DNA of 64,000 nt from Nemertoderma westbladi (taxonomy: Eukaryota; Animalia; Xenacoelomorpha): positions 7,460 to 71,459 of the forward strand of contig JAUCBJ010009049.1 in assembly GCA_032718475.1 (NCBI GenBank). Reading direction: 5' to 3'. Shown one piece after another: positions 21,412-55,573 of the stretch (its first letter is position 1; each line of letters begins with the position of its first letter). Below the pieces are notes generated by a model, which made no database searches, had not been told where the DNA came from, and saw only the letters and a list, made by a program, of their open reading frames with translations. Both the position numbers and the translations under genes were made by a program.

Positions 21412-23288
21412 TGTTGTGTCCCCTACGGTAAGGACTACCCGACAGCCTACAAATCTACTAATCAAGCTATAGGATATCTCTAACCGTAGAGTCCAGTAGT
21501 ATACCGCTTACCAGATCCTAGTAACGATGTATCTTACTATGAGACTCTAGTAATGAAACGGGCTCGTACAGTATCTGACAACAAATCCCAGTCCAGGATA
21601 TCTAAACAAACAGACACAATACACAAACTACTACTGGCGAGGAGCAGAGCCTGGTGTCTATTCTATGTACGCGAGTGGGTCTAATGCCTATGAACTAGAC
21701 AGAAGGATACCTGTCCTCTAACCGGTATGGCAGATGTACAGTTACAGTAACAGACCAAACTCACGGGAAAACAATCCCCGCGCAGCGAATCCTAACTATC
21801 GCTGACAGTCCTAAATACCGTAACTTGCCGCGGTGTGATTTATATGGTTTATATACGAGCTAGGTGGAACACAGCCCTAGCGTAACAATACTGATTACCC
21901 TTGTCTGAATCAGCCTAAGAATGGTCGTGCCTAAATGTCGTGCATAACTGATGCCCTGTACGAAATCAGTCTAAAAGGGTCGTGTCTAACGTACTATACT
22001 GCTGGGTAGAAAACAACAGTTTAATAACGAATAATGAAATACAGAAAATCCTCCCCTTTTGCCGTAACTAAATATCAGATCCTAATTCTACAAATACAGA
22101 TAAATTCTGCCTAAATCTAAAGTGCGCTATCTAGTAGGAACTCTAAGGGTAAATATGTTTTAGGGCGTGTGTGTGTGGGTGTGTTACAAATAAAACAATT
22201 TTGGTGAACGTCGTTTCACTAGGTTTTAGTGATTTCCTGACTAAAATAATACCGAGCGCTAGCTACTAAAATAAACTAGTCGCGTTTGTAGAACTTTATA
22301 CTCACAAAATGACGTCAAAGCTCTTTCCTTCCTATCCACAACTCAACTGGGCAACCACGGTGTTAGTAACTACACCCGTGATCGGCACAAATACCAGATT
22401 CTGGTTGTAAGATAAGAAATAGGGATTAATTGCTACCGTAAGTTAGCTGATCTGGTATACAAATTTGATTCTAGAATTTTGTTGCTGCGGTAGTTAGCAG
22501 CAAATACCTATCAGTACGTGGCAAGGCGCGGTAGGATATTAATAAACCTCCCTAGGCCAAGCGGTGTGCCGGTAGCTGAAATGCTCCTTGCCTGATCAAA
22601 TAACTAACTCCAGGAGGAAGGGGGGGGGGGGGGTACTAATGTATGTTCACAAAGCGAACCGGTACCAAACAGTCAGTACTAACAAATCACTAAATTATGG
22701 AACGTATGCTGTCCGTACCTAATATGTACTTGCGTACTGACGAACGGCAATAGCTCACGTTTGTACCTGTAACGCATATAGGTGTTCCAAGGGTTTGTAG
22801 GGCTGACAAGAAAAGGGGGGGGGGGGGTTTCTGCCTGAAATATAATTATTTGATCCTAAATTTTGCGGCGTGCCAGAACGGCATCACGCTCACCCTGATC
22901 TATAGGTCTTACGGCGGGCAAGGGCGTCGAACAAAGTCTTACCTTCCTCATAAAGCGGGCGCTGCATGGCAAGTCGGAGTATTTCGAAGGGCGAAGGGGG
23001 TGTGCGGTCGAACTAATGTGGGCGCTAGCGTGTTGTGGACATCCCTTCCCTGCGTTGCTGACGGCCTAACTGTTTAGGCTGAAATCCTCCCGATGTTTGG
23101 CTGTCCCGAAGTCGGACCAAAAGAAAACATGTTCAGGAGTTTGCAGTATATTTACAGTTTAGATTCGAGCAAAGATTATCTAACAGAGTTTCAACAAGAA
23201 ACCAAAAAGTAATAAAACTAAAAGAGTAACGTTAGGGATAAAGTATCCAGTCAAGAATGATAGGTGATAACCGAAGGCAAACCAGCCC

Positions 23289-23532
23289 TTATATACTAAA
23301 TATCGCACATGGAAACCAAACAGAATTTTTCACAGCTTCACAATTGAGCAATGAGACGCTCTGTGCCCTATGATTGGCCCAGCTCATCGTTCAATGTTAA
23401 CCGGCCCTTACACTAATCTGGGACACGGAATCCTAGCAGAAATTTTCATAGCCTCACATTTGAGCAATAAGATAATTTATGGCCTATGATTGGCCTGGCT
23501 CATCTTTTGATACGTTGTACGCATCTCATTGG
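23289..23532 (-). promoter_or_regulatory. Putative LTR U3 Pol II promoter: three CCAAT boxes (two in a ~120-bp duplication) and TATATAA
   Basis: Plus-strand ATTGG at 23373, 23489 and 23528; TTATATA at 23289-23295. The same motifs occur in the 5' LTR. Confidence 0.55.
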
Positions 23533-23568
23533 TCCACCAATTTGCTCCAAATGAAAATAAATGGCCCC

Positions 23569-23651
23569 AAAATACAAATTTCCCGACCGGGAATCGAACA
23601 CGTAACCTATCTGTAATGCAACCAACGCCTTAACCATCTGACCACTACGCC
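23569..23651 (-). ncRNA. tRNA-derived / SINE-head-like Pol III cassette in the B LTR (second copy 59213-59295)
   Basis: Sense sequence GGCGTAG-TGGTCAGATGG (A box)-TTAAGGCG...GTTCGATTC (B box)-CCGGTCGGGAAATTTGTA-TTTT (terminator). The 3' half resembles tRNA-Glu/Gly. It has no acceptor stem, so it is not a functional tRNA. Confidence 0.6.
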
Positions 23652-23795
23652 ACGAGAGTAACTAGGGGCTTTATGTGTACAATATGAATAGGCAATATTA
23701 CATTACTGTAACTTAATCAAAATGCGTCGGATTTTCGAAAGTTTTTACGTTAAAGTTAAACTACAAATGCTATCTTATAGTGAAATAATTCATCA

Positions 23796-23803
23796 CCGCT
23801 CCA
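23796..23803 (-). promoter_or_regulatory. Short polypurine tract of B2 (TGGAGCGG)
   Basis: Abuts the 3' LTR. The same GGAGCGG core abuts the A2 3' LTR. Confidence 0.65.
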
Positions 23804-24657
23804 TGAAAACAGTAAGTAGGACTGTTTTCACCAATCGAAATACGAACTTATTTACAAATATTTCTAAATCTACTGGTAGGGCCTAAAATATAAAATAATC
23901 ACTATCTAATTATTGCATACTTAATATTGCAGGTATGGCGTAAATACAATCCATCGTACATACAAAATACAAATTTTACTAATTAACTTTAGTACATAAA
24001 ATGCTTTCGGTTATCAAGGTAAACAAATGAAACAAATTAGATCAAACAAATTAGAACAAACAAACAAATAATTTCAATCTCTTGCAGTAAATCTTTATAT
24101 TGTAAATATACATAATAAACTTCCACCAAATTAAATCAGTTCAAATATAAAATAAACATAATGCGCTAATAATTTCCAAATAAGTATTAAAGTGTCCTCC
24201 TGACGAGCTGAAAAGTTCGTCCTGCTGGTCTGGATGTCTTCTCCTGAGCACTAATTGCTAACGGTAGGCTCGCAAGCCTTCCTTCTCTATCTTGCTCCTC
24301 CAAACCAACGTCCAAAACATAATGTCCAATATAAATATCCAAATATAATATCCAAATATAATATCCAAATGAAACATCCGAATATAAATATCCAAATTGG
24401 TAGGCTCGCAAGCCTTCCTTCTTCTCTCTTCCTATTCCTTTGCTGAGTGGGTCGTCCACGTCCTCTAGTGCGACTGGATGGTGGTCGAGGTCGAACTGGG
24501 CTTGGACTTCGGCGTCGAGTTGTCGGTGGTTCCAAAATGCTAGGAAATGGGACGACGGGAGTTTCGCACATCCATCGTACGCTCAATCCTCTAAATCCTC
24601 GTCCGATTCCAATCGTCAATTTAACATCGGACGAGTCTCTACAACGCTGGGAGGAAG

Positions 24658-25674
24658 TCAAAATGGTGAGACTATTCCGTCCGCTGACACCTCGCTCTCT
24701 GACGTCGTTTGAATCCTAAAGGGTTCCGGCAAAGCGTATCCTGTCCCTCCGCGTGGTTCTCTAGCAAGGGAAACTGTACCCCGAGTCATCCGGATTTGCG
24801 ATTTTGATGTCATCCTCTCGGCGACATTTACTACCATCTTTATCTCTTGTCCGGCCTTTTGGGCTTTGAGTATATGGAATTGCTGATCATCCTGTGGGTG
24901 ACGTGTCCTCTCCGCTAGTGGTGTGGCCTTGAAGCCAGTCTCACGCAAAACGTCTGTCTCGTCTAGAATACACGAGGTTACGCGTTTGTGATAAAATGCG
25001 CTCCTGTATGCCCAAGCTATCGAATGCCAGGCTCCTTGATTACGCTGTTCAACTCGCAATTTGTCGAATTCCCCGGCGGTAATCTTGTTCACCACAGTTT
25101 GAAAGTTCCAAGTGTTCTTGTTGTCGGGGTGTACCTGTAGAAAGTAGTCCCGCACAACCTTAAATCCGCTATCCAGAGGCAATATATCCAGCACCTCCAA
25201 CAATTCATCATACTGAGGCATAGCCGATACGTATCCTTTGTTTGACATTATGAGAGGGTTTACGGCCCAAAATCCCAAATGTGCTCTCATAGGAAAACGG
25301 CGTCGCTGTGTAGATACATGCTCGTCTGCTAGATCCTCCCAATGGTCGAATAGCTGTCGAACGATTTTAACTGACATGTGCTCATAGGAAACATCTCTAA
25401 GTTGACATTCAGATGCCCTATGGCCCTTAATATTACAAAACGTGCACTGCGCCACGAAACGCCAGCAAGTGTAGAAAGTGTGCGAACGTTGATCCCCACA
25501 CCAGTTACATACCAACTCCGGTAGAGATATGTGCTTCGCTCTGCATTTCTTTGCGTGGTGGCCAGTTGCCCCGCATCTGCCGCAAATAGTGTTGGCAGGG
25601 TACCAAACTTGCTCATAGATGAGATCTCCGATGGGACGAGCGCTACCGTCCACGTGATAATTCTCATCCTTCAC
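24658..25674 (-). CDS. B2 ORF3 C-terminal part: triple zinc knuckle plus a conserved helical domain (frameshifted from 25664-27757)
   Basis: Motifs CGRCGATGHHAKKC, CNWCGDQRSHTFYTC and CTFCNIKGHRASEC. HWEDLADEH...LGFWAVNP aligns with A2 AWEANADLH...EGVYAFHP. An R/P-rich tail probably continues to ~24400. Confidence 0.8.
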   Translation of the reverse strand: MKDENYHVDGSARPIGDLIYEQVWYPANTICGRCGATGHHAKKCRAKHISLPELVCNWCGDQRSHTFYTCWRFVAQCTFCNIKGHRASECQLRDVSYEHMSVKIVRQLFDHWEDLADEHVSTQRRRFPMRAHLGFWAVNPLIMSNKGYVSAMPQYDELLEVLDILPLDSGFKVVRDYFLQVHPDNKNTWNFQTVVNKITAGEFDKLRVEQRNQGAWHSIAWAYRSAFYHKRVTSCILDETDVLRETGFKATPLAERTRHPQDDQQFHILKAQKAGQEIKMVVNVAERMTSKSQIRMTRGTVSLAREPRGGTGYALPEPFRIQTTSESEVSADGIVSPF

Positions 25675-27757
25675 CGAGACATAACGGATGTCGCTTTAGG
25701 GTTCTAGATACTATGTCGGCGATGAAACAAACGTTGACCGAAGATTCTATCGCTAAGTAGTATTGCAAGATTATCTGTGGAGGTGAAGTAATCGCCCAAT
25801 ACATGCAAACTCGCCACTTTAACTGTGACTCGAACTCGTTTACGCCGGGGGTATCTCCCTCTCCATATACGTCTGTGTACTTGCTCCTCCTACTCTCCTT
25901 ATAATCCCAACTGAACATTAGATATGAGATATAACCCGTCCCAGTTTTTAGCGTGTTATACTCCCTAAAGTATCCTTGCTCAATAGCCCAAAGCAACAAT
26001 GGTCTATTATCCACGTATGGCGTAGACAGTTGATCCTCTTCCGTGGGCATTCCCGCGAAATCGCTAATAAGGTCATCCCGTACACCGGATCCGATCTTGA
26101 CGATGCTCTTGTCCAACACAACGTCTCGCACGGCCTTTGGCAACATCCTAGCTTCTATGCTACAAGCCAGGTCCATGGATTTAACTATCCGTTTTATCAT
26201 CGCGTGTCTTTGCGTCGTTCCTTCCGGCATAGGCATCTTTCTATCGCTCCTCTGTCGGCTGAAGACATGTAACACGCCGTCTGGTGCTCTAATCTGTATA
26301 GTTTTCGAAGTGAGGCTTTGCTGATGGCTTCCTCCTTCATTGTCGTAAAACATATAACCATTCTCCTTTAGAGATTGGCTGGTCACGTCCCAATCGTCGA
26401 GTAAATCGTCGATAGGGTTCCAAATTCTTCCAATTGACTTTTCGTCATCGAAGCTAATGGGTTTACCGGTCCAATTGGTCGCGATATCGGTGTCGGTCTC
26501 AAATGTTCCAACTCCGATCCATAATCGAATCGTTCTAGTCAGATATCCTCGTAAGATGCAAGGTGCGATATCCGTCCCCGCGCGATCCACTTCCTTAAAG
26601 TCCGTAATGTGTGGAGGCACGTTGCGTACGATTTTTTGGACTATTATTTTATGCAACTCGGTTGACTCTAGCACATCACCGAAGGTAACCGATGGGAGGA
26701 AATCCAGGTTCGAGATGATCTCCGGGTGTTCAACTATGGGAATCTCGTAAGTTGTCTCCTTCCGGGTCGGTACACTAATAGGAAAGCTAGTCGGTCTCGC
26801 AACTGGTACTATCGTTCCAGCAGAATGGGATTGAGGTTCTCGCGTTATCTCGACATGAGGTATCTGTAGTCTCTGCGACAAACGCTGAGCAAAGGTGATA
26901 CTATCGAAGAGCTCGGGTGTCATCTCCTTGGGTTCGGTTTGATCGTGGGATATCCAATAGAATGGTAGGCTCGCGAGCCTTCCGCCGAACTCCTCGATCT
27001 CGCCTTTCTCGTACGCCTTGTACGCCCTGTAGAGGCTCAAAGCTTCCCGTTTCTCTCTTGTCGACTTATTAGACTCGTCCACTACCATGCTGTAGACATC
27101 TGGTTCGACTAATCTAGGTTCGTTAATAACGATCTCACCCGCGTTCGGTCCACTCATTTTAAACGAATCGTACGGATTCGTCAAAGGGTATCCGCCTTCT
27201 TGGTAACGCAGACTTTGGTGGTATGAGCATCGCGCTAATATCGGCTCGGGGTTCTCTGAGTTCAATCTCATAGGAATTGCGTTATCTTGCTCGCGCATAC
27301 ATGCTCCACATTTGTAAAACAGTTTGTATATGGAAAACGCGTCCTTTGTCTCTGGATCTGCTCCTCGAGCGCGTCTATAAAGATGCATTCCTTCGAATTC
27401 ATCCCTGGCTGCAGGTAAGGGTTCATCTACCGTCAAATATTGCAGCGTATGATATAATCGGCGTATTTTGGTGTCTGGATCCTCGCAAATGTCGCTAGCG
27501 TCGCATAACGCATCGTAGGGATATAACGCATTGAACTCAGCGCGTATCTCTTCCGTTCTTTTGTTATATGCGTCCAACCGCTGTCGCGTAACATTCGGGT
27601 CCGCCTTGGATTTAGCGAACTTGGCTGTACTTCTGGCCATACTCTCCACTCCAAACACACTAAAGTTTTTAGCTCCATATCGATTGAATGGCGCCTGGTG
27701 CTCTTGTTCTTGCGTAAACCCTTGATGTAACTCCTTATTCATCTTCTCCGCCATCAT
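25664..27757 (-). CDS. B2 ORF3 N-terminal part: CxxC..CxxH zinc finger plus DEDDy (WRN/RNase D-like) 3'-5' exonuclease
   Basis: Exo I YMFYDNEG; Exo II LPKAVRDVVLDKSIVKIGSGVRDDL; YVDNR; Exo III LQYYLAIES. N-terminal RLYHTLQYLTVDEPLP, CGAC...CSYH. Confidence 0.8.
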   Translation of the reverse strand: MMAEKMNKELHQGFTQEQEHQAPFNRYGAKNFSVFGVESMARSTAKFAKSKADPNVTRQRLDAYNKRTEEIRAEFNALYPYDALCDASDICEDPDTKIRRLYHTLQYLTVDEPLPAARDEFEGMHLYRRARGADPETKDAFSIYKLFYKCGACMREQDNAIPMRLNSENPEPILARCSYHQSLRYQEGGYPLTNPYDSFKMSGPNAGEIVINEPRLVEPDVYSMVVDESNKSTREKREALSLYRAYKAYEKGEIEEFGGRLASLPFYWISHDQTEPKEMTPELFDSITFAQRLSQRLQIPHVEITREPQSHSAGTIVPVARPTSFPISVPTRKETTYEIPIVEHPEIISNLDFLPSVTFGDVLESTELHKIIVQKIVRNVPPHITDFKEVDRAGTDIAPCILRGYLTRTIRLWIGVGTFETDTDIATNWTGKPISFDDEKSIGRIWNPIDDLLDDWDVTSQSLKENGYMFYDNEGGSHQQSLTSKTIQIRAPDGVLHVFSRQRSDRKMPMPEGTTQRHAMIKRIVKSMDLACSIEARMLPKAVRDVVLDKSIVKIGSGVRDDLISDFAGMPTEEDQLSTPYVDNRPLLLWAIEQGYFREYNTLKTGTGYISYLMFSWDYKESRRSKYTDVYGEGDTPGVNEFESQLKWRVCMYWAITSPPQIILQYYLAIESSVNVCFIADIVSRTLKRHPLCLGEG

Positions 27758-27789
27758 ATACGCGTATATATGGTTACGTTGTTACGTTG

Positions 27790-27820
27790 CTACTAGATGA
27801 AACACAAAATAGAGGTTAGA
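27790..27820 (-). promoter_or_regulatory. Putative splice acceptor for ORF3
   Basis: Sense CTAAC (branch point)-CTCTATTTTGTGTTTCATC-TAGTAG, about 35 nt before the ORF3 ATG. Confidence 0.55.
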
Positions 27821-28487
27821 TGTGAGGTGACTTAGAATTTGTCGGCTTTTGGCTCAACTTTGCTCTAAACCCCAACCCATTTGCCTAATGACTTCGGGTT
27901 TGCGTGATTTCGCACTGGCTCCTAATCCAAAAAATTGTGCCGATAAAAAATGAATTCCGGGTAAACTAGCCGCGAGTCTAAAATACTCACCTTCAATTTC
28001 CCAAACTACATTCTTAAAGAAATAATGCAGTCGAGAATTATTTGGTCTAAATAATAGTAGACACGACTACGTAGAACAAGGCCGATTTTCTTTTTCCAAA
28101 AGAAATTTATCGGTAGGCTCGCAAGCCTTCCATCCGCTCTTGTCCTCCCTAATTTTAATTTTTATCTAGCTGTAGTCTAGAATTCGTATTCACTGGAGAA
28201 TCATTTTTCTTAAATTTAAATCCAACTAAATGGATTTGTCTAATAATTTTTGAAAAATTGTCTCTCTTGTAGGTTCCAAGTGGAATTCCATTCCTACTGT
28301 ACACACAATCCCGCTCCTATGTGATACATAAGGGTACTACCCTCCATGTTCACGTATAAAGACAATGGAATTCCACCGCTGTCTCTATCTACAGTGAAGA
28401 GGATTACAAATGCACATACAGTAATACAAAATACTAAATGACTAAAATACGGTAAGGCTATGTGGCGGCCATCAAGGGTCCCACATC

Positions 28488-31400
28488 TTATTTACTAATA
28501 TTGGGTGGAGATTTGTAGTCTCCTGTCTCGTTTCTAGTCTCCTCAAGGAGTACGAGATGTTGTACAGGCCTATCTACAGTACGTCCGTCGATAGTCCGTA
28601 CAGTAACTGTCCTTATTACACCAGATGTAGGGTGTGTGGTCAAAATGACTCCGGTCAGCCAAAACCGTCTTTTCAGATTGGCTTCAGCCAATAAAACATG
28701 GTCACCACGTCTCAAACATCGGGTATTATGATACCAATTTGTTCTGGACGAAATAGAGGGCAAATAATGTTTCTGCCATATTTCCCAGAATTTATTTGCA
28801 AGCAATTGAGTGATTTTCCAAGCTTTGTTGCCATATCCGTCGCTATTAACGGGTACCGAAATGGGCAACAATGTCGTCGGCGCCTGCATAAGCAGGTGCG
28901 CTGGTGTCAAGGCAAACTGTACATCGTTATTGTCTGGGATCAAAGCGATCGGTCTAGTATTTAAAGTCGCTTCGATTTCTATTAGTAACGTCGTCAGTTG
29001 GTCGTCTGTCAATATGTGTTGCGTCGGGATTACTTTAGCCATAGCTGTTTTAATTGAGCCAATCAGCCTTTCCCAAACTCCGCCTCTCCACGGACTGTCT
29101 GGGGTATTAAAATTCCAAACAATACGGTGAGGACGTAGTTCCTCGGAAATCAGGTTTTGGTCCAACTTCCTTAAAGCTCTGGTTATTTCGTTCCGTGCAC
29201 CCACAAAGTTTGTCCCTTGGTCGCAATAAATGGATTTGACCAATCCACGTCTAGCGATAAATCGCCGTAAGGCTAGGATAAAGGCATTGGTGGTCAGATC
29301 TATCACATGCTCTATATGGACAGCTCTGCTGGCCATGCAAGTGAAGATCAATCCCCAACGTTTTACCTGTACCCTTCCGCGTTTCGCGATTATGGGTCCA
29401 AAACAGTCTATCCCTGTCTCAGTGAAAGGGGGTCTAAACGCCTGTAATCTCGATAATGGTAGTTCACTCATTTCTTGGTGTCCTATCCGCGCGTGCACCT
29501 TCTTACAAATCATACAGTTCCGTGTTACCGAACTTAGTGCCTTGCTAGGCCTAATCAGTACAAACCTCGATCGTAAATGTGACAGACAGTGGTGTCTACC
29601 CACGTGTTTGAGTTGTACATGTGCGTCCAGTATCATAGCGTGCTGTAATTCATGGTGTTGCGGTATGATGATAGGATACCTAAAGTCAAGTGCAAAGTCG
29701 ATGTTCTGGAGTCTGAACTTGTGACAAAGTAAGCCCCGATAAATAATCGGACTCCAACTCAAAATCGGTGAAGACTTGATCTGTTTACCTTGTTTGATCA
29801 CTGTGAATTCTCGTGCGAAATATCGCAATTGATAATGGCGAATGATATCAACTTCACAATGATCAACTTCCTCTAAGGTAAGTCTTCTAGGAAAGTCGCG
29901 TTTGCCTCTGGCATATTGTCTCAAACGTTTGAGCCATGCTAACTTGCGGCACGCATCAGTCCATGATCTAGTTAGGTTTACTATCCGGTCAACGTGAGTG
30001 TTAGTGACGTCATCAGGTAAGGTATAGTTGTAATGTGGATACTTGTCTGGACTTGGTAGGCCCACGGGCCTTCCGGTAGGTTTGTCTGAGTCCCCAAGTA
30101 TGTCAATCTCCACGGTCTTACCTTTACCGTCCGCTCCTAGTGTGTCGACTGGCAGTAACGGTTTCAACTCTACAGTGTTAGTGTGTTCCTGTGAGCCTGT
30201 AAGCTTTCTAACCTTAGCCACACATTTACCTGTAGGTGGTAAGTTAAGTACTTTCTTTGAGCGAAGTGTAATTGCTGTGGCTACACCTTTGTCGTCCAAA
30301 GAAGTCAAATTCGGTAAATTTCTAAAAGTCCGCTCCAGTGGGTCCTTTAATGGAGTGTCTAGTAGACAGTCTGGCGAAATGTCCGGTGAACAGTCTGGTG
30401 AGACGTCTGGTGAGACATAGCGCGGAACATCCGGCGAAATGTCCTGTTGTCGGTCCCAAAAGGTGTCTGGCGTAATTTCTGTCAGAAAGTCTGGTCTAAA
30501 GTCTGGTGGACAGTCTGTCGAGATGTCTGGTGGAAAGTCTGGTGAGACGTCCGGTAGACAATCTGTCGAGAGTTCCATAAAACAATCTGGCGAGCAATCC
30601 GGAGAACAATCTAGTATTGCTTCTGGTGAATAATCTGGCGAGTAATCTGGTGAACAATCTGGCGAAATGTCTGGTGAAATCTCCTGCGGAACATCCGGTG
30701 AAAGATTCGTACAAGCGTCTGGTCGAGATTCTGGTGAGACGTCTGGCGTAATGTCAGGTCTAGCGTCCAGGTCATCAGATTTCGTCCGTCCTTGTTTCCT
30801 CTTGACCTTGGCGTTGGCTTTCGCTTTAGATTTGACAACCTTGTCGATTTTTATCTCGGCACCCTCTGGTATGGTATTGGTTGTCGCGTCAAATAACGGT
30901 GGCCATTCGTCTGATGGTCGCTGTAGGAAATCGGGTCCTTGAAACCAAAAGGATTTATTGTCCGGTTTACAAAAGTCAAGCTGTTGCATCCCCCGTGACG
31001 CGATGTCAGCTGGGTTCAGCTTCCCTGGACAGTGACGCCAATCTTGTTTGAGCGACAAGTCTAGGATTTCAGCCCGTCTGTTGGCTACGAAAGTCTTGAA
31101 CTCAAACGTCTCGTTGTTTATGTACCAAAGTACCAACGTCGCGTCCGTCCTTCAAGTTAGCCTCCAGCTCGCGTTGAACTAGACTGACAATATCGGTGGA
31201 TATCGTCCCGGCTTGCAGCTCTCCACGAGGTACAGTCATATACTTCAACGGCATTGTTGTAGCCTTTGAAGTAACGAGAGATACATTGTAGCTGTCCGAT
31301 GTCACTTGTCGTCTAAGGTATAATGTAACCCCCAATCCATCCTTGCTAGCGTCACTAAAGCTGTGAAGCTCTAAATCGACAGGAAAGGTGGTCTGCAAAG

Positions 31401-34400
31401 GAAAATATACCCTTGGTATGGTATAGGCAAGTAGGAACGTCAGTTGGGCTTCCCAGTCCCTCCATCGCCCAGCTAACTTTTCTGGGATGGGATCGTCCCA
31501 TTCCAGTCCGGCTTGCCAAATGCTGCGGAGTATAATCCTAGCATGTAGGATCACTGGACTAATGAAACACAACGGGTCGTACAATCGTCTCATGGTCGAT
31601 AAGCAAGTCATCTTAGTGAGAGGTCTAGTCGGGTCGTTGGACCTTACACGTACCCTAAAATTGTCGGTGTTAGAGTCCCAACTAAGTCCTAATACTTTAG
31701 TCGTCGGTAGAGGTTCTATGTCTAAGTCTAGGTCCCTTCCGCTGCGATCTGTTGGGTCGAATGAGTTTACCAGTTCGGGTTCGTTGGAAGCAAACTTTGT
31801 CAGGTGGAATCTGCCCTCAGCGAGACAATCCTGGAGTTGGTGTGCTACGGCGTAGCGCGCTCCAAGGTGTCACAACTCTTGAGGCCGTTATCCACGTAGA
31901 AATCTCGTTCCACGGTCCGAACTACTTCTGGGTCAAATTGGTCTCGTCTGTCTAATGCGGTCTGCTTTAAGGCATACATGGTGCAGTTGGGGCTGTCCCT
32001 GGCTCCGAAAACTCTTACCTGCATTTGGTAAGTTTCTGGCGGAAGTTCCAAATTTCCATCCGGATACCAAAGAAACCTCAAGCTGTCCCTGTCCCACTCC
32101 AAAGACTTAACCTGGTGAAACATGGCCTCTACGTCACAGGTGAAAGCCACTTTGCGTTGTCTAAAACGCATTAGGACTCCCATGAGGTAATTATTCATAT
32201 TCGGCCCATCCATCAGTTCGCTGTTCATAGACATCCCTTGGTAAAGCGCGGCGCAGTCGTTGACTACACGCACCTTGCCAGGTTTGTCCGGGTGTCGAAC
32301 AAAATGATGTGGCAGGTAATATGTCTGATCTGTGGTTACCTCGGGATTTAACATCCTAATGGCGTATCCATTTTGGAGATACGTCTGAAGTTGTGCATTG
32401 TATTGCATATGGGCCGTCTCGTCTCGCAACAATCACTGCCGTATTGATTTGAGTTGCCTCAAAGCAAGCGGGTAATTGTTAACGAGCTTAGGTTGTCCAT
32501 TGCGCCACAACATACCAACCTCGTAGTGGCCATTCACGGTCTGGCGAATGGTATCTCTCATAATATTTAATGACCGTTTTTCCTGTTCTGACATAGCGGT
32601 CTCGTAACTACCGGGTTCTGCTGAGTCCTGTTCCAACCATTGAATGGTCCATTCAGTCAGCAGTCGGTCAAGCGCTGCTTGCACTGCGCCATGGTCCTCG
32701 TCCACGTCTTCGTCCGCTGCGGTGGCTAGTGTCAATGTGTCTGGTAGGCTCACAAGCCTTCCGGTGTCACTAGTCGGCGTCGAATCGTCATGCGGCGGTT
32801 TGATACCCTCTTGATCTGTCGGTAGGCTCGCAAGCCTTCCTAGATCAACGACCGGTGTCGAAGCCTGGTGGGTGGGGTCAATGACCTTTGGATTTTTCGG
32901 TAGGCTTGCAAGCCTTCCAAAATCCTCGTTCATCGAGTCATCGACAGCAACAACCCTTTGGTCTTTGGCAGTCAATACAACCTGGTTTACTGCAAGTAGT
33001 TGTAAGTCAGAGGTCCGCGTGGTCGTTTCCAGATCAGTTACGTCAGTATCGGTGGCGTCTGCGTTAGCGACGCAAGTCCGTCGTAGTCCCGTCTGTACAA
33101 TTGGACCACAGGAGTGTGAAGGAGAATTATCTATCGTGTTAGTCAGTAAACTACACGTACTCAAAACGTCGTCCTCCTGGTCACTTACCTCTAGTGAACG
33201 TATTGGTGCTCTAGTATACCAACCTATGGGAGTTCTACATGCATAGGGGTTGCCCGCTGTAATAACAGATGGGCGTGTCTCCCATACCTGATGTAAGTTA
33301 AACTGGTCTGTCCCGATTAACATTGCAATTGAACGATAATTGACAGGACATTCCGGTATTCCAAGGTGTCGGAAATACTTACGATCTTCCGGTGATTGCT
33401 CTGGCACAGGGCCGAGCAAGTTACTAAAGTCCTTCGTAGTTGCAAAGGTCAAATTTCTTACCGGAAGTAATGAGCACTCCTCCTTGCTGTGTTCCGCTTT
33501 GGAAAGAAGAGTGTCTAAGGTTAGTTTTACTCTAGTCACTGGAATCGCTCTCTTACCATGCATGCTGCTTACAGTATACTGAGCAGTCTTACCTTGACTC
33601 ATGTCCGTAACCACGTCGGCTACTTGTTCGTCGACATAGCTATGCGATGACGCAGAGTCTAAGATAGCGTATATACGCTTGCTCCCTCGGGTTCCGGTAA
33701 TCTTTATAGGAATCACGCTAAACCCTTTCAATTGGTTCTGAGTGAGGAGTGTTATCGATGGCTGTTCCTCACCTGCATGCACGTAAAATGTGTCGTCTTC
33801 CTCCTCGTCCTCGTCCGATGATCCCGATTGATCCATACAGTCCGTATAAAACGTACGGATCTCGCGCGGCGCACGCTCCTTATATAGCGCGTCGCATCTA
33901 GCCGCTTTATCTGGATACTCTCGTCGAAAGAGTTTGGTCGGAGTATGACTCGTCGTGTGGAGTAACGCGTCGTGGTTGCGTCCACACTGAGGACATGTAT
34001 TGTCGCTCGGGCAATCCTTCCGGACGTGTCCTGGCTTCATACATCTCCAGCAAGAATCTAACGATCGAATTTGGAGTCTCCTCTCTTCGATTCCTAACTC
34101 TCTAAAAGCGCGACACCCACGAAGTTTGTGTCCGCTATAGTTTCTGCCGTTCCGCTTGCAGTACGAGCATCCCACAAAGTCCGCTGGCAACTGTTGTCGT
34201 GGCTGTGTGGTGCCGATAGGCGTCAGAACTTTAGAAGTCTCAGTAGTGGTGGCGTAGGTAACGGCTTTCGCGTTCGTCGGAAATGGTTTGGTTCGAGTCG
34301 GCGCTGAAATAGCTATCCCTTCCGCCGCGATATGGTGATCAGTATAGTTCGATCGAGTCTCGATCACGGCCTCCCGTGAAATCAGTTGGTAGACGTCGGT

Positions 34401-37361
34401 GAGTTTTAATAGCCCGCCGGCTTCTTCACGCTGGTACTCGATGCGTCGCCATTCTCGTCGGAGTCTATGGTGAAGTCGACCGATTATCCTAATGAGAACC
34501 GTCGGTGCGTTAGCGTATTCGAGTTGTCCTATGGACCGTAAAGTCCCTATAGCGTTTTTGATTTTGTCCGTGAGTCGTAGAAGGTCGATCGGTTTCGAAA
34601 TATTGCCTCCTCTGCAGAGGTCTTCTATAATGGATTTAGCCATGGCTACGTTACCGCCGTAAATCGAATACAAACGGTCGTACGCCAACTCAAAGGCATC
34701 TGGAACACCAATAAAGGTTTCCGCTAATCGTTTCGGCTCACCAGACAGGACTTGGAGCAAGTAATTAAACTTCTCCGTCGAGGTGAAAGCACACTTAGCG
34801 ATCTGGGACTCGACATAGTCTACCAGTGTACGCCAGTGTTTTGCGTTGCCAGAGAACTTCGGCGGTTGCTGTGCCGGTAATCCGTGTCTAGCCGCGAATT
34901 TCGCAATCTCGCTAACCAAATCCAACTGTCCGCGTCCCTGTTTGGTGGCGTCGTCCAGTCGTTCCCTTCCGTCGGTAGGAATTATTAACGGGATCTTCTT
35001 CTCGATGGGTCGGAGTCTGTCTAGTCTCCTGTTCTCTCCTCGGTGGTCGATGTTGTCTAGGTTGTTCCAATTCCACGCTGGTTCGTGATCGATCCGACGG
35101 TTGCGCTTCGAGTCGTTCCTCGGGTTGAGCTAGTCTATCTGTCATCTCGGTGAATTGTTTGGCGCTGATCGTTTCCGCTGGTCGCAATGTGGGTTTCCAA
35201 ATGGGTGTTTCTCGTGGTGGGTTGTCGACGAATTGATTTGTCGATCGTTCCTCTCGTTTGTAATCTGTCGCCGCTGCTGCCGCTCCAGTACGGAATACTT
35301 CCCGTTCCGTCGACTCTGAGTCACTGGATGAGTCGCTGTCGTCCGGATAAGGTGGTTGGCGGATTCGCGTCCGGCATATTATTCTCGAGCGCGTTCGTTG
35401 CGTTCCGGGATCCACGGTTCTCCGACGTTCGGTAGGCTCACAAGCATTCCACGAAGTCGTAGGTCTTGTCAAACATGGTTCGATCCTGTGAGTACTACCC
35501 ACATCCGTCCTTCTCCGTTGTTTGGTAGGCTCACAAGCTTTCCACGAAGTCGTAGGTCGCGTCGAACTCTGTGTCAATGGTTGAGTAAAGTGGTCAGGTT
35601 TCGTAGTCGGTCTATAAATAACTGGGTTCGCGCAGCACGTCACAGGTTTAACTGCTAACGGCTTACTTACCTGTTTAATTGACATAAATGCAGGTTCCTC
35701 CCTTCCTACAAGTAGACTACGACTTACTGTAGGTGGACTAGTTATGTTACCTGCTAAAATTGGCAATGAAGTTGCCCTAGGTTGCGGTATTTCTGTCACA
35801 ACAAACCTGTTACCTTGCGTCGAGCGCACAGGCGTTATTTCTTTAAGTTTTGTGACAAAGACTGGTTTTATTCTAGTCGTGGGTTTGAGCATAGGGATAA
35901 CTTGTGGAAAACGTTTACAATAATCCTCTACGAACTCCTCTCCTCTATCTATCGCTCCCACACTTCCTTCCTCAAGACGCTTCTGAATTCCGCAATATCG
36001 AGCTTCCAAACGATTCAGAGCAGACAAGTCGTGTCCGGCTCGGGATCTTACAGATCTATCTCTCGCGTCGAGTTCGAGGTCCTCTTGCGCGTTCGCTGCC
36101 TCATGCGATCTACGATTAAATTCGAACTGTAGCTGCATTTCCCTTTTGCGTCGATCCGCTACTTGTTGTTGTGCTGCTAGTTCTGCTTCCTGTATGGCTA
36201 AACGTGATTTTAATTGACGTGCCTCCAACTGAGCACGTGCGTCAGATGTCGCCTTCTGCCGTGCTAACTCGTCAGCTGCTGCAACTCGTGTTAACTCGTC
36301 AGTTGCTACCCGTCGTGCTAACTCGTCGGTAGCTGCCGCCGCGGCTGCTTCTCGCGCTAAGTCTTCCTCCAATCTTCGCATCTCCGAAGCCTCAAATTCG
36401 GCTTACGCTTTGAGTTGCGCAATTCTCGCCTTGTCTTCTCTACGTTGTCTCTCTCCCTCGATAGCGATCGGTGTCATCTGTTGTTGCGCTTCTTCCTCGG
36501 CGACTTGTTGTCGGCGTGCGACTTCCTGTTGTTGTGAGTAATTACGGATGCTGTTCTACTAACGTCGCCAACGTCGCTCCGCATGCTAACGAACAATCTA
36601 TCCATGGGTGGAATATGGTAGGCTCACAAGCCTTCCGTAGTGAGAACTTCCGTCGTCCCTTGCGGTTCGACTTCCGGTTCTTTGATCGGTACGCCGCATC
36701 TACGAAGAAAATTGGTGAGCATCCCTAACCTCCCGTCCAGGCAGTATAGTTCTTCTTCCTCCTCGGGTTGTAACAACGCGTCCGAAACTGACTCACCTAG
36801 CATTTGGTCGAGCTGCTCCTGTTGAGCCAATCTTATTACTGACTTAAACTGAATAATACTTTCTCTCGCACTCACTAACTTATCTATTATCTTTACCTGG
36901 GTCAAGTTGTCGCCACGCAACTCTGCGAGTTCGTGTAAACCTCTAAGTTTATCTACGGAAACATGTACCCTACTTTCTATCCTTACTTGTAAGGTGTAGA
37001 ACTCGTATCTCGACATCGGGGCGGTTAACTCGCGTAAAATGCGAAAACCTTCTCCGAGGTTTCGAGTAATCTGGGCCATGTGTCCTCCTATACTTCTAAT
37101 AACGTTCTCCTGGCTTCCAGTCGAACTTACCATGTCTGGTTCCCGCGATCTAGTCTGCGGGACGGTAAGGAAATCTTCGATTCTGCCATTGCCACGCATT
37201 GCGGCTTCCGGTATTTCCGTTCGGGGTACCGGTGACGCAAGCGGTGTGACATCGGTGGAATCTCGGGTTCTCCTTCTAGGTTCGTCTACTGTCGATCTGT
37301 CCGGGTCGCACGAGTCATAGTCGGTAGGGGGGTATCGCTTCGAATGTGGTGTGTCACTCAT
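28488..37361 (-). pseudogene. B2 gag-pol polyprotein (~2950 codons), disrupted
   Basis: ORFs 36624-37361, 34912-36381, 32433-34925 (gag, zinc knuckles, protease AILDSAS), 31845-32432 (RT with YVDD mutated to YVDN), 31102-31611 (RNase H LHSFSDAS) and 28488-31136 (HHCC, GIDCFGP, CDQGTNF, GGVWERLIGSIK integrase). Confidence 0.93.
30360..30765 (-). repeat. Degenerate 12-bp coding repeat ((S/T)PDx)n in B pol between RNase H and integrase
   Basis: Translation ...ISPDISPDCSPDYSPDYSPE...VSPDVSPDCSPDISPD. Confidence 0.85.
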
Positions 37362-37424
37362 GTCTTATTATATATGTCAAGTACGGGTAATAAAATGTCA
37401 AAATGTCGAAATGTCCAAATGTCA

Positions 37425-37951: not shown

Positions 37952-39165
37952 TATAAAAGCTTTTGCGGAATTGCCCGGTTATTTTCCTTATTTTTTTCGT
38001 AAAATACTCTGTAGTTGGTTTAGTAGGCGTAAGAGGCCGTATTATTGCTGTATCGGTGTTTTTTAGAGGACCTAAGAGCTATTTCTTCCGTATTGTGTAC
38101 TTTGGAAGACATGGTTGGTGATTCTATGGCAATTCTGTGACGCAAAATGGCTAGATACTCTTGAACAGTAGTTACTATGACGACGGTTAACAGCTGATAT
38201 GCATACGTGTCGATTTTCTTTGTTCTACGGTGCCTCTTGGTTCAGTCAACCAATCAGAGCGTTTTTACTGCTCTTGTAGAGAAATTTCCTAGAAATCACG
38301 CAATGCATTATGGGCAATGTTTACATTCTGTCCTAAGCCATGAAAGAACGGCTTTTGGAATATTTGTGCTTTTCTGCTTTTAGCCTAACACTAGTAGGCT
38401 TAATTATAAGGACATATATCCGTTATCGACTGGCAATACACACTGGTATCACTGGACTCAACCTGCATATATCTTATCGTACATACTTTTATATTGTTAT
38501 ACTGCTATTTACTGTCGGTTCTTCATTATATGGTTGATGAAATATTATATTGAAATAACGAGAAATAATCCCAAAACCCCAATATTCTTGATATACCGAA
38601 GGTAAGAGAGACCGGTTACATATAACGATTGCAATTTATGTTAAAGTGGTTTGAAGTGAATCTAATGTTATTTGATAGACCCTACATGAGTCGGTCTGTG
38701 TTCCTTTTATATGTGACTAAAATCAGTGAAGATCGGCAGATTAGTGTGCAGTATTGTGCAGCATTGTGTATGAGTGAGACTGATAACGAAGCATTTCCTA
38801 AAGAATGCGCCATATATGTGAATTATAACTAAGCCATATCGTTGCGTGTAGTTTAAGTCATAACTCTGTTTATATAGATAAAGCGCCACGTCCTAAAAGA
38901 ACTGTTAATATTCCCCGAAGGTGAATAATATTGTCAGAGATTATATAATACGATCAGTCGAATAATACAGTAGGCTTACATAGCAATAAGATTAAGCCGT
39001 CAAACTCAATCTCCCGGGTATATCCAGCGGGTGAATGATCGCGCACGGTTTGGTTTCGACTAGTGTAGTGAATCAGATACTTGTCAGAGGCTAAAAGCGA
39101 TTTATTATCTAGAAGACATCCTAATTTGGCGGGTTAAACTGCCAAAGGTATTAAAAGCGCGAACA
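37952..39165 (+). repeat. 5' LTR of A2 (1214 bp, TA...CA)
   Basis: Direct repeat of 55574-56785 with about 15 differences by manual count. Confidence 0.95.
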
Positions 39166-39234
39166 ATAATGGATATATAGCTTCTTTATTGCAGTAAGCA
39201 ATAAAGTTGAAAGTACCGGTCGACTGGTAAATCT

Positions 39235-39325
39235 GAACCGGTACTGCTGTAGGTCTGTAGGCCCAACTGCCGGAACCGGTACTGCTGTAGGTCTGTAGGC
39301 CCAACTGCCTGAACCGGTACTGCTG
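39235..39325 (+). repeat. 37-bp tandem repeat (~2.5 copies) in the A2 leader
   Basis: GAACCGGTACTGCTGTAGGTCTGTAGGCCCAACTGCC repeated; A1 has ~1.3 copies. Confidence 0.75.
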
Positions 39326-41412
39326 TATAAGTACATTAGTATTATTCGATTTGATTGTTATACCGGTAGGTCTTAGTACTTAATCGGGGAACGGCCGCCC
39401 TGGTTTTTTATTGAGATTTTACTTATTTCTGTCAGTTTTATTTATTTGTAGGCCAATATTGAGCAGAAGGCGTGTAAGCCTGTTCAGATTGTACAGAGAA
39501 TTTGTAGGCTGAGCTGTTGTCTGACTGTTGTTAAGTCTGAAAGACTGTAGTGTGTGTAGAGCGTATGTCCGAAAGAGTGCCAGTTAGTAAGTAGGGGCTT
39601 CCAGTGTTGTGAGGTAAACCCCCTCTTAAAGAATAAGTCGTACTACTCGGTTAGCGCACATACTAACTAACCATTTTGGAGTCTGCATATACTGTGGTTT
39701 ATTTAGGCTTGATAGTAGGCTGACAGCGTTTGGTCTGTACTTTGTTTGTGTAGTCTGTACGGGTAGCGTAATATCCTTATTTAGATAATCTGTAGGCTGA
39801 ATTGTTGCCTAGCTGTTATTAGGTCTGAGGGATTGCGTTGTGTGTAGAGTGTATGTCCAATAAAGTGCCAGTTAGTAAGTAGGGGCTTCCAGTGTTGTGA
39901 GGTAAACCCCCTCTTAAAGAATAAGTCGTACTACTCGGTTAGCGCGCATACTAACTAACCATTTTGGAGTCTGTACATACCGTAGTTGTTTAGGCTTTAT
40001 AGTAGTCTGTCAGCATTTAGTCTGCATTTTGTTTGAGTAGTTTGTACGCGTTGCTTAATATTTATTATTCAGAGTTATGCGATTATTCGCAACATTCATG
40101 TCCCCAAGTTTATTCCTACAGTAATTGTGCTTGTTATACATACCGCTATAGTTAAACTAACCCCAGTACTACATCAGGGCTGCTCGGCGTAGGTAAAGAC
40201 TGGAGATTTTGTGCTTTGGTCACTCCGGCAGATACCGTGGTTCTTTTAGCTGTTCAAGTATTTTTAACTGCTGGTTATCTGTTTTATAAGTACTTGTACC
40301 TAATTTAGGGTTTAGTGTACAGTGCTTTCCGAAAGTAATTAGTGTGTAGGCAGTATATTTGTGTTGTAAAGTGGTTAATAGGCACGTTGGTTCTGGTAGA
40401 CCGCTGTAATTAATCTCTAGGTAGGGACACTCCGTGATACATAACGTAGTACCTATAGCGCTACGGGTATAGGTCGTCAGACGGTGGTATTTTCCTATCT
40501 GGACAGCGCAGTATATTTACTATTACTTATTATTTTCACATACCGTAGTATCCTGTCCGTTGTAATAACCAGAAATTCTAACCTTCTGTTAGACTGGTTT
40601 GTAGTTCCCTGTAAAATTACCCTAAAATTTCGTACGTAATATTTTGTTGTGTTTAATTAGAGATTAAATCTCACCCGTGTCTTATCATAAGTAATTTGTA
40701 GATAAGTAACTTAGGAAGTAGAATTATTTGTTTTAGTGTCCTATAAGTAACACTTCACTGAAAGCGCACCGCTTTGTGTAGTGATTACTTCCCGGAAATA
40801 ATAACATCTATTTCAATATTGTAACAAAACCCTCATACGGATATATATATATATATTATAAAATAAAATCAATTAAATCTATTTATAAATAGTAGGCCTA
40901 TTATACAACCTTTAGGTCTTAAAATCAGTTGGACTACTGCTCAAGTAACGGTAATAAAGTAAGTAAAGTAACCAAGTAACCCTAAAATTCAGGAATTCAA
41001 TTATTTAAAATAATTGACATACCGGTATTTACAATAGGCTTATTATATTTATTTCTATAAATTTAGGCTGAAATCATACCGGTATTCTGTAATTAATATA
41101 GGCCATAATTATACCTATATATACTATAAGTGTAGGCTGTATACCGGTATTCCAGATAGGCCTATTATATACTTATATATATTTGTGCTGAAACTACATA
41201 CCAGTATTCTGTAACAAATCTAGTCTGTAATAATACTTATATATACTATAAGTGTATACCGGTATTCTACTATATTGCGTGTACATATACAGCTACACTG
41301 AGTAGCAGTATAGGTAATTGATTACTAGGATAGCAGTGATACTGAATTACTAGACTTGCTTTAACTTTATTTATAGCAGTAGGTATTCAACTGTATAACT
41401 GTATAAACTGAA

Positions 41413-44400
41413 ATGTCTGACACGCAGCAAAACCTATCAGACAGTCTCCTAGATACAACCATCCGCGACTCAGATAGGGGTGTTGAACCGTCGAGACCTA
41501 AGTTCAGCTCACCTCCTAGTGTAAGGAAAGTCATCCCTCCTGTAGTAATATCAGACCCTAGGCTAATCCAACACCATAGGTCTATCATCGGTACGCGGGC
41601 CCAAGTTAAGCGGGATCAAGAAGCAGCCGTCAATCAGCAGCAACCCCCTAGCCAAGAACCTAGTTCTCAGCGGCCCGATAGCTCCAGTAGTTCGGATACT
41701 GTTGAGCTAACGCCCGAACGCGGAGCAAAAATGGCGGATACAGTTTATTCGGACCCCCTTCTTGTTCTTCCGGCAGCAGTACTAACTACGGTGTTAGTTG
41801 CGGTGGAGGAACACCAACATGATTGGGTTAGAAGTGGGCAGTCGACCAAAGATAGTTATGCGGGATACCTGAGGGAAGAACTGATGTCTATTGTCGAGTC
41901 ACAGTGGAACTTCCCCGGACTCGGACTCCCGTTTGACTTATCGGAAGCCACCTGGGATGATATACACCGGATGGGAGTGGCCAAGGACACCGTAGATCCA
42001 GCTGTTTGGAAGAGGTCAGCAGCTGGATATGTACAAGGGTTCTTCGGCTCTTTGGAGCGATTAGAAGAACAGCTGTTTCGACAACAACGAGGACCTCAAG
42101 AGCAGGAAAAGCTGCTTTATCAAGTACGTGAAAGAACTCTACGCATTAGACTAATCCTATCGGCTTTTGAGGAAACATCCAAAAGAAAGCAGGACACGTC
42201 ATTGCAAGTCGCTGTCAAGACTTGGTTCCAGCGGGTGAGCCTCAAGGTTCAAGAAACAGCCAAGTGGAAAGCTCAGTTGGCTGAGCGCCCCTACCACTAT
42301 GAAGAATCAACCGACGCCACCTTTTCTCAAGGGGAAAGCGAAGTAACAGCAGCAGAGAAGCCGCGAACTAAAAACGCTATTGACATTTATCTGTCCGACT
42401 ATCAGCGATTCCTAGGAGACGAAGAGTTGAGGAGACGGTTGGCTGGACTTTCCCCTAATAGTGAAGGAGCCAAGCATGTGTTGGACGCAATCGATACGGA
42501 AATGTTAGCTGAAGACCAAGCTAAATTTGATGAACGTCTCCGCATAGCTAGAGCCCAGGAAGAACAAGTAAAGAAAAGGCGGATAGAAGACAGAAAGGCA
42601 GCATCAGTAGCAGCGGCAATGGCAACAGCAGAAGCAGACAGAAAGGCGGCAGAAGCAGCGGCCGAAGCAGACAGAAAGGCAGAAAGAAAAGCGGCAGAAG
42701 CAGCAGCCGAAGCGGACAGAAAGGCAGAAAGAAAGGCGGCAGAAGCAGCAGCCGAAGTGGAAAGAAAGGCGGCGGAGGCAGTGGCCGAAGCAGAACGGAG
42801 AGCGTCTGAAGAGACCACCCAACTAGAGTTGGAAAATCTGCAAGAGACGCAAGACAACATCAATAGACAGTTAACTGATAGTCGAATGAAGATGATGAGT
42901 CGATCTACTTCCAAACGCCAAGGCTATACATCATCGGAGGAAGGGGATACCACCGACCCTGAAGGCGGAGTAAGTAGATCTCGTCTCAGTAGGCGTAGAA
43001 ATACATCTCACCGTCACAAATTGCCCGATTTGCCCCCGCTGTTAGAAGACAAATAGCTAGCACAACCGTAGGTAGTATAGAACCCACAGACCAGATTACT
43101 GTAAACAGACACCCTACTATAGTAGATGAACCTGAAATAATTAGGCCTGTTCTCGAAGCCACCCCTTTGGTGCTAGAGACACCTGTACTTCTAGAACCTA
43201 CATTTAAATTCCCTTTACACAGCACCAAACTATCTGTGCCTAGAGGAACAGTTCCTGAAACAGTGTCGGTCTTGGACTCCGAGCGAAATATAAATAATAT
43301 ATCGCCCGTAGTCCCTCGTCTGCCCGCTACGACGTTGGCGGATCCCGCTTCGGCGGTTAATTGGGTAGACGAGAGACGGCGGGGGATGGACATTCTCCTC
43401 GGAAAGATGGAGGAGAATCGAGTACGCTCCTCCCAACAAGTCCGAGAGTTAGAAGGGACTGTTCAACAGTTAAAAGGAACTGTAAAGGAAAGTAGGTTAG
43501 AGTTGCAAGAAGTGCAGCAAAGTATCGCATTAGAACGTGATAAATTAGTCAATTTACAAAAAGGTATACCACTACCCCCTGTAACAATGTGTCAACCCGT
43601 TAGGTCTGAAGTATCCCATGCGCAAGGTGCGGAGCCTACACGCATCTATACTGCTAGCAAAGTAGAAACTCCTGTAGTGAACCCTATTAAGGGTAATTAT
43701 AGACCTGTTGACAATGATATCCCATCTAGACTGGATAATAATCCGAGAAATTTATATACCGATAATTCTCTATTCAATAATACGATGGCTCAAGAAAGTT
43801 TTACGCGTCAAATGGCTAGAACCGAAGCCCGGCAAGCGGTAAAGGTTGGAGAGATCGCCAAGTTTAATGGAGATGAGATGAAATGGTTACCTTTTAATGA
43901 ATATTACAAAGATAACATACAGGACTCTGTACTATCTAACGGAGAGAAACTTAGATTCCTTATTGAGTGCTTGGAAGGATCTCCCAAGTTAATGGCGTTA
44001 AAGTTTATTGAACATCCAGACGGATTAAGACAAGTTTGGGACACACTAAACATCAGGTATGGTAATAGGAATAATATCGCTAAATATTTGTATGCAAAAT
44101 TAGTAGCGCCCAGAAAGTTCATCAACAGTGGGATAATAGAGTTTTCCGATGAGATTCAAGAGATCTGTAGACAATTAGATTGGTTAGGTAAGTCTCATGA
44201 ATACCAAAGTTCTATGGTCATTGGAGCTGTAGCTTCTACTTTACCGAAGGGTGGTGGGGTAGGCACACGCTGGGATAAGAAGGTACTATATATGATGGAA
44301 CAACAACGACGGGACCCTACCATGGCTGATCTCATGTCATTCTTGGACGGAGAAGTGAAATTGCAACTCCTCTAGCAGTCCAGAGAGAAGACACTGGAAA

Positions 44401-55496: not shown

Positions 55497-55565
55497 TGTT
55501 TAGAGTATCTTTATGTTTTAGAAACTGTGATTTTTATATTTTATAGACTGAAAATCCCATTTTCT

Positions 55566-55573
55566 GGGAGCGG
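55566..55573 (+). promoter_or_regulatory. Polypurine tract of A2 (GGGAGCGG)
   Basis: Immediately 5' of the 3' LTR. Confidence 0.65.

Follow-up and report, generated by a model that had tools for sequence, protein, structure and literature searches.

Why should a word of about 20 nucleotides (nt) be kept almost unchanged at many places along a retrotransposon, and is it read as RNA or as DNA? The question is raised by a 64,000-nt stretch of the Nemertoderma westbladi genome (contig JAUCBJ010009049.1, positions 7,460 to 71,459; hereafter the window), which holds nested copies of two Bel/Pao long terminal repeat (LTR) retrotransposon families, A and B (Pfam: DUF1759, Peptidase_A17, DUF5641). The word recurs in element B, which lies on the minus strand with an LTR-to-LTR span from 57058-59440 to 21412-23796 and measures ~19 kilobases (kb) once a nested family-A insert is discounted. 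Judged from sequence comparison, the word is a real, selected, family-specific cis element of this giant Bel/Pao retrotransposon. Its copies are the following.

24263..24282, minus strand: motif copy in the 3' non-coding region, loop UGCG
24399..24418, minus strand: motif copy in the 3' non-coding region, loop UGCG
26964..26983, minus strand: phase-0 motif copy in the linker of ORF3, with a CGCG loop
28112..28131, minus strand: motif copy in non-coding DNA between pol and ORF3, loop UGCG
30055..30074, minus strand: motif copy in the linker between RNase H and integrase, with a CGUG loop closed by C-G
32743..32918, minus strand: three motif copies (32743, 32821, 32899) in the protease-RT linker, 78-bp spacing, phase 0
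35431..35543, minus strand: two motif copies (35431, 35524) in the gag region, 93-bp spacing, phase 1, each with a stem mismatch at motif position 5
36617..36636, minus strand: phase-2 motif copy in the N-terminal region of gag, at the point where the first gag frame stops in this genomic copy
1486..1661, minus strand: three orthologous copies (1486, 1564, 1642) in B1, a truncated copy of B

A scan of both strands of the window at up to five mismatches found exactly 14 sites, 11 in B and three in B1, and no others (the minus-strand matches were the same sites). All 14 share one orientation, that of the element transcript, which bears out every coordinate and the single orientation reported in an earlier sequence-only reading. 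The word quoted there is matched without mismatch at 24263, 24399, 28112, 32821, 1564 and 1642, with one mismatch at 26964, 32743, 32899, 36617 and 1486, with two at 35431 and 35524, and with four at 30055. Only 0.011 matches are expected by chance in 14.4 kb at up to four mismatches, and a weight matrix built from the 11 copies gives 28.8 bits to the weakest of them and 9.6 bits to the best unrelated site in the window. Because a purine directly follows the word on the sense strand in all 11 B copies and all three B1 copies, the motif is better taken as 21 nt. The 11 copies form seven clusters spread over 12 kb and evenly spaced, the largest gap being 2.8 kb (P about 0.008, post hoc). All are confined to the internal transcribed region, eight of them within open frames. 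The window scan found no copy in the B LTRs or in the family-A copies A1 and A2, and the absence from family A that had been claimed thus stands. An unbiased search for dispersed 18-mers recovered the word as the single such family of B, while A1 and A2 yielded none; the control, two shuffles of B, gave one three-cluster match and none.

The word is far better conserved than its surroundings. Across 50 pairs of copies from different clusters, identity is 27% in the left flank, 91% in the word and 25% in the right flank. The earlier description of the flanks as mostly unrelated therefore holds between clusters (25-27% identity), whereas within clusters they are partly related (left 46%, right 36%, five pairs). 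The copies at 24263 and 24399 agree at 20/20 word positions and at 8/30 and 5/30 flank positions, and the 78-bp-spaced trio at 18-19/20 and 6-18/30. This trio reads as an old tandem triplication whose flanks have since diverged. The sole tandem pair with close flanks (23/30 and 17/30) is 35431 and 35524. Five copies are read in phase 0, two in phase 1 and one in phase 2, and three lie outside open frames. Phases read in a decayed copy may mislead, and the non-coding copies are independent of the phase calls. Being read in three phases and present in non-coding DNA, the word is selected as nucleic acid. The proposal of a family-specific cis signal constrained at the nucleotide level is thus supported by the phases, the flank divergence and the fixed degenerate codons described below; frame independence is confirmed, although the phases number three and not two.

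These observations bear on whether a peptide (GRLASLP-like), for example a protease cleavage site in linkers, could be what is constrained. Five copies are in that phase and lie in interdomain linkers. Three copies are non-coding, three are in other phases, and the codons for Gly, Arg and the second Leu are identical in all five phase-0 copies of B, whereas the 30055 copy alters three residues. The peptide explanation is largely refuted and we give it next to no credence.

Public sequence data agree with this. The B family is abundant (16,056 contigs of public run X1 align to 14 kb). The contigs compared over 29990-30140 came from X1 (176), from X3, a separate study (87), and from X5 (one, under another organism label; eight differences, four of them unplaced). 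Variation at 2% or more is confined to six places, all of them outside 30055-30074. Since no variant reaches 2% in contigs from two studies, the C-G closing pair and CGUG loop at 30055 are family-wide and not private to this copy. The earlier reading had singled out this closing-pair swap as a compensatory change; the swap is present and family-wide, although it counts as a single event that a symmetric DNA site would explain just as well. Among the matches listed, diverged contigs align through the 30055 word and end 3-4 bases past it in unrelated loose ends. The X1 contig joints that were listed (15 of 107) show two words standing 26-30 unrelated letters apart, an arrangement absent from B.

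Could the word then be a neutral relic, copied about by template switching or repair? A unit of 21 nt preserves any reading frame, the copies sit in tolerant linkers and local duplicates, the stem is broken in the two gag copies at 35431 and 35524, and the contigs at 30055 give no significant constraint (variable places: 0 in 20 motif bases vs 6 in 131 flank bases). Against this, tandem siblings keep 18-20/20 word bases while their flanks keep 5-18/30 in four of five pairs, no consistent target duplication was seen by eye around the copies, and the diverged contigs align as far as the word and stop just beyond it. We regard a relic as improbable, and even jointly the absence of function and a peptide constraint make up only a small part of our expectation.

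If the word is functional, it may be read in RNA or in double-stranded DNA. The predicted RNA fold is a 2-bp stem, an A.A mismatch, a 5-bp stem and a Y-G-Y-G loop, and the full hairpin is part of the predicted centroid fold of 9/11 copies in a 60-nt context. The word can also pair with itself: the predicted self-duplex of the four canonical copies has -30.7 kcal/mol on the sense strand vs -22.9 on the antisense strand (two separate hairpins have -7.6 each), although self-pairing of this kind is a property of most palindromic hairpins. The sense duplex is stronger because U.G pairs form on that strand, and 18/20 bases are predicted to pair in the two-molecule duplex. The symmetry is incomplete in a constant manner, as 8/10 position pairs are symmetric, the central G-C included, while positions 3 and 18 form an asymmetric A/A in 14/14 copies, none of which is perfectly symmetric. 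The loops of the 11 copies (UGCG in four, UGUG in four, CGCG, CGUG and UGCA in one each) follow a Y-G-Y-G pattern in which the second position is G in 11/11 and the fourth in 10/11.

We favour RNA because of the single orientation, the fixed A/A asymmetry, the motif-free LTRs, the location mostly in open frames, the even spacing, the constant loop G2/G4 and the stronger sense duplex. RNA is preferred over DNA modestly, and the RNA-level readings taken together are probable. The one that we put first, tentatively and at somewhat under an even chance, is that the word acts on the sense RNA, where it would bind Gag and promote pairing between RNAs along the ~17-kb genome RNA. A small hairpin on the sense RNA would be read by the zinc knuckles of Gag, and it would re-pair as a duplex between RNA copies; hairpins and duplexes together would mark, pair and compact the genome RNA for packaging. 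The copies may have spread by local duplication and template jumps and been kept wherever protein linkers tolerate them. The element encodes recognisable candidate binders, namely knuckles and an exonuclease-like domain. A more specific possibility, which we hold with clearly less confidence, is that the word serves as an RNA barcode every 1-3 kb in protein linkers and internal non-coding gaps, where it would zip two genome RNAs lengthwise or let knuckle proteins tell family RNA from other RNA.

Several observations weigh against a Gag-bound RNA signal. The 20-mer hairpin has -7.6 kcal/mol on either strand, so folding does not discriminate between them, and homodimeric proteins classically bind DNA sites of just this form, a 20-bp dyad of fixed sequence. 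Duplication preserves orientation whatever the function, and the even spacing may merely mirror the positions of linkers. The stems are near-invariant, with one compensatory event among seven clusters, the 30055 swap, and a palindromic DNA site predicts the same change. The loop G positions are partly dictated by the dyad itself. The 5' leader, the seat of retroviral and Ty1 signals, has no copy, and family A, of similar length, lacks such a motif. Longer stems formed by the flanks were also considered: these beat swapped flanks on both strands (sense P 0.001-0.014) but not random positions in B (600 positions; P 0.09-0.15 for the 11 sense copies, 0.23-0.49 by cluster), and they were rejected.

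Other identities for the word were sought. Rfam covariance models gave no match at E up to 5 in 21412-37951, and splice-donor-like words showed no strand bias. By-eye comparison with consensus sequences led us to drop a tRNA-end mimic, a small-RNA target and a p53-type site. Pattern scans yielded 4 viral and 14 metagenome loci with one copy each, which we attribute to chance as 0/18 has a tblastn match to B proteins; no related loci were found in the viral contigs searched.

The loop deserves separate treatment, as its variation had been taken as evidence for a hairpin. The differences inside the word between B1/B2 are CpG transitions in 3/3 cases, and the B1 counterpart of 32743 has a UGCG loop. 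CpG transitions are 2.5 to 3.5 times above GpC in B1/B2 (67/245 vs 19/176) and in the B LTRs (10/102 vs 3/109), and the excess is slight in A1/A2 pol. Because the in-word differences are CpG transitions and the CpG rate is raised, much of the loop variation is likely decay after insertion, the loop being nearly as fixed as the stem; as support for a hairpin the loop changes are accordingly weakened. UNCG tetraloops have a U-N-C-G loop, usually closed by C-G. The suggested likeness to them does not hold up: UGCG is found in 4/11 copies only, a C-G closing pair in 1/11, and the family-wide loop at 30055 is CGUG.

In the main alternative, a dimeric protein encoded by the element or the host would bind the word in double-stranded DNA and keep the element body open or unsilenced in the manner of VANC targets. 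We consider this unlikely, if worth serious attention. It would explain why 8/10 pairs are symmetric and why the symmetry is preserved or even increased by the two changes at position 9 and by the swap at 30055, and the near-invariant stems suit base-specific reading. The raised CpG transitions make methylation-type silencing plausible, and the contig words in tandem with 26-30 unrelated letters between them recall VANC motifs, which accumulate by tandem repeats (PMC5735166). The N-terminal Cys/His domain of ORF3, moreover, is uncharacterised. The single orientation, the fixed A/A asymmetry, the motif-free LTRs and the 8/11 copies in open frames speak against it, as do the absence of a DNA-binding family in ORF3 and the presence in family A of a homologous ORF3 without a long motif.

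The candidate partners are encoded in the following parts of element B, and a family-A copy served as control.

57058..59440, minus strand: 5' LTR of B, motif-free; a 5-bp target duplication lies outside both LTRs
21412..23796, minus strand: 3' LTR of B, 98.3% identical to the 5' LTR, motif-free
32433..37364, minus strand: gag-protease region, three open frames, DUF1759, three Cys/His knuckles
28488..32432, minus strand: pol, three open frames with RT, Peptidase_A17 (RNase H region), integrase H2C2 and DUF5641
24658..27781, minus strand: ORF3 of B, two open frames with a Cys/His N-terminal domain, a 3'-5' exonuclease-like domain, three CCHC knuckles and a conserved C-terminal domain
37952..56785, plus strand: family A element (A2), nested in the 5' leader of B; this sister lineage, our control, has a homologous ORF3 but lacks a dispersed 20-mer

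The ORF3 proteins of A and B form an accessory family that is rare (loci 24658-27781 on the minus strand, and 51421-55140 and 16591-18027 on the plus strand). The N-terminal Cys/His domain is common to A and B (E 2e-10), and like Gag, ORF3 of B has three knuckles, of CCHC type. DEDDy exonucleases are recognised by a DnaQ-like fold and acidic catalytic motifs. In ORF3 the exonuclease-like domain is indicated by an Atlas score of 0.93 (PF01612 is annotated on 50% of the members of the best named cluster) and by a D-x-E motif common to A and B, while Pfam is negative for A and B and gives E 0.2 for P0121, and the structural model is unusable (pLDDT 31.5). A search of 1.84 billion proteins found one distant relative, P0121, with the same exonuclease-knuckle order (E 2.7e-9). 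A Pfam scan of ORF3 detected nothing beyond zf-CCHC and no DNA-binding family, word-index searches gave no match, a sequence search of the PDB gave nothing relevant, and Atlas on the knuckle region returned only leads below 0.9.

A search of family A for a dispersed motif of its own found none at 18 nt with up to three mismatches in three clusters or at 14 nt with up to two mismatches in five clusters, the search passing over windows below 35% G+C or of low complexity. No exact 7-10-mer in family A is as strong as the B word, and motifs of the same shape are absent from A2, while A1 has two unrelated ones. Hence neither A1 nor A2 has a long dispersed counterpart of the kind that had been looked for. 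Because family A has ORF3 without a comparable motif, a fixed system of ORF3 plus motif is not shown, and the VANC-like pairing of the two that had been proposed lacks support: ORF3 looks like an exonuclease with zinc knuckles, and the motifs of VANC lie in non-coding DNA and measure 8-9 bp (PMC5735166). Gag is a simpler putative partner of the word than ORF3.

The 2.2-kb 5' leader of A (39166-41400) contains tandem repeats of 38, ~290 and 122 bp, in which ACCGGT (9 vs 1.5 expected) and GTAGGC (9 vs 1.3) are enriched; GTAGGC matches one arm of the B word. These 6-mers could be a shorter, VANC-like target.

Alternatively, ORF3 or a host factor might recognise the word as an RNA hairpin that serves as a self-mark in stability, export or localisation and could, for instance, shield element RNA from the element's own exonuclease-like protein or from small-RNA silencing. 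This reading shares the RNA-side evidence given above, ORF3 couples an exonuclease-like domain to three knuckles in an architecture also present in P0121, and processing of retroelement RNA ends has been proposed as the role of DEDDy ORF3s in rotifer retroelements (PMC5408684). On the other side, family A possesses ORF3 but lacks a motif of this kind, and the exonuclease assignment is confirmed neither by Pfam nor by a usable model. We judge a self-mark rather improbable, less so than a relic.

How does a Gag-bound, self-pairing RNA word compare with known systems? Dispersed packaging signals are described in RNA viruses (MS2, parechovirus, the HBV pregenome; PMC6281560) as numerous small stem-loops that share a motif and are scattered through the coding sequence of one genome RNA, as is predicted here for 11 copies in seven clusters. 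Unlike these, which vary around a short recognition motif, the B word is near-fixed over ~20 nt and carried by an LTR retrotransposon, and its binding by Gag is predicted. HIV and Ty1 (PAL1/PAL2) dimerise by hairpin palindromes that re-pair between molecules (PMC6844567, PMC7599994), and the B word is likewise a hairpin pseudo-palindrome predicted to re-pair as an extended inter-RNA duplex, as for HIV-1 DIS. The DIS and PAL sequences, in contrast, are few, mutually dissimilar and at the 5' end (PMC7599994, PMC6844567), whereas one word is present 11 times in B, and neither the LTR nor the stretch upstream of the gag frames has a copy; the loop has 4 nt and is not a 6-nt palindrome as in DIS (PMC7599994). 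In HIV-1, paired knuckles read loop G2 and G4 in GGAG and GGUG tetraloops (PMC7599994). The HIV-1 nucleocapsid (NC) sites (psi and SD hairpins) are, like the B word, hairpins of ~20 nt with G at tetraloop positions 2 and 4, and element B encodes tandem knuckles; the likeness is confined to two loop positions, without sequence kinship (PMC7599994).

The VANC/VANDAL anti-silencing system of Arabidopsis is characterised by an accessory protein that binds DNA sequence-specifically and causes demethylation; VANC targets in VANDAL elements are 8-9-bp DNA motifs in non-coding tandem repeats (PMC5735166). As in B, the motif is family-specific and partly tandem-duplicated and an accessory ORF is on the element. 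VANDAL is a Mutator-like DNA transposon and its motif is short, non-palindromic and non-coding (PMC5735166), while the B word spans 20-21 nt with 8/11 copies in open frames, the carrier is Bel/Pao, ORF3 has only zf-CCHC in Pfam (judged without alignment to a VANC sequence), and the sister family has the ORF without the motif. ORF3 also has parallels in the DEDDy-exonuclease ORF3 of the bdelloid Juno/Vesta LTR elements and Terminons, with an accessory 3'-5' exonuclease-like ORF downstream of pol and, in Terminons, RNA motifs (hammerheads) (PMC5408684, PMC6431247). Element B differs from them in belonging to Bel/Pao, in the three knuckles of its ORF3 and in a motif unmatched in Rfam. The word thus resembles a dispersed packaging or dimer signal yet fails a defining feature of DIS/PAL, VANC and UNCG. 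A literature search of titles and abstracts, with most subscription papers outside reach, found no such motif described in an LTR element, which is limited evidence of novelty.

Transcript length, reverse transcriptase processivity and packaging capacity have been named as limits on retroelement size (PMC6431247), and how retroelement RNA of 15-25 kb is selected, paired and copied is an open question on which the word bears. Packaging and dimer signals in the cited work sit at the 5' end (PMC7599994, PMC6844567). If the word is an RNA barcode, it would give an animal LTR element a dispersed, near-invariant code for packaging or self-recognition; if it is a DNA site, it would be an animal analogue of sequence-specific anti-silencing, of which the literature search found none. 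A short, repeated, family-specific word makes a direct test possible with 20-nt oligonucleotides and small protein domains.

The assignment of the carrier is clear. Element B has two direct LTRs flanked by the target duplication, and the domain order gag-PR-RT-RH-IN with a DUF1759 gag, Peptidase_A17 and an integrase with DUF5641 places it in Bel/Pao; integrase matches at 32-42% identity carry the same Pfam set. A and B are sisters (support 0.997, 41% identity) when their integrases (A2 and B) are placed in a tree with 60 database matches (picked by coverage from the top 60). B1 (1-3450) is 95% identical to B over 3.3 kb; it lacks the segment equivalent to ~29898-31406, the 30055 motif copy included, and A1 starts inside it, at 3451. 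The RNase H-integrase linker of B is enlarged by 12/24-bp degenerate repeats (30364-30678), and the insertion site of the element lies in a 43-bp minisatellite (20508-21412 and 59434-60262).

None of the internal regions of B, A2 and A1 starts with a tRNA-type TGG primer site, and a search for tRNA genes found none. The first 11-12 internal bases pair with a site in the element's own LTR: 57047-57057 with 58413-58422 in B, 39166-39177 with ~38404-38427 in A2, and 4638-4649 with ~3855-3878 in A1. Shuffled queries did as well in 1, 0 and 1 of 40 cases at 12 nt and in 0, 1 and 9 of 40 at 16 nt (B, A2 and A1, respectively). By eye, two of the paired positions differ between A1 and A2, and they do so on both sides of the pairing. 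Tf1 self-primes with 11 bases (PMC7175516), and by analogy families A and B look self-primed. The literature search found no report of self-priming in Bel/Pao elements, and the part of PMC3601003 consulted has nothing on Bel/Pao priming.

Two further features lie elsewhere in the window. A separate RT frame at 18238-19686 (RVT_1, E 1.7e-28), just past an assembly gap (18028-18127), likely belongs to a non-LTR element. At 62914-63847, a 30-bp tandem array of 31 copies has open frames on both strands.

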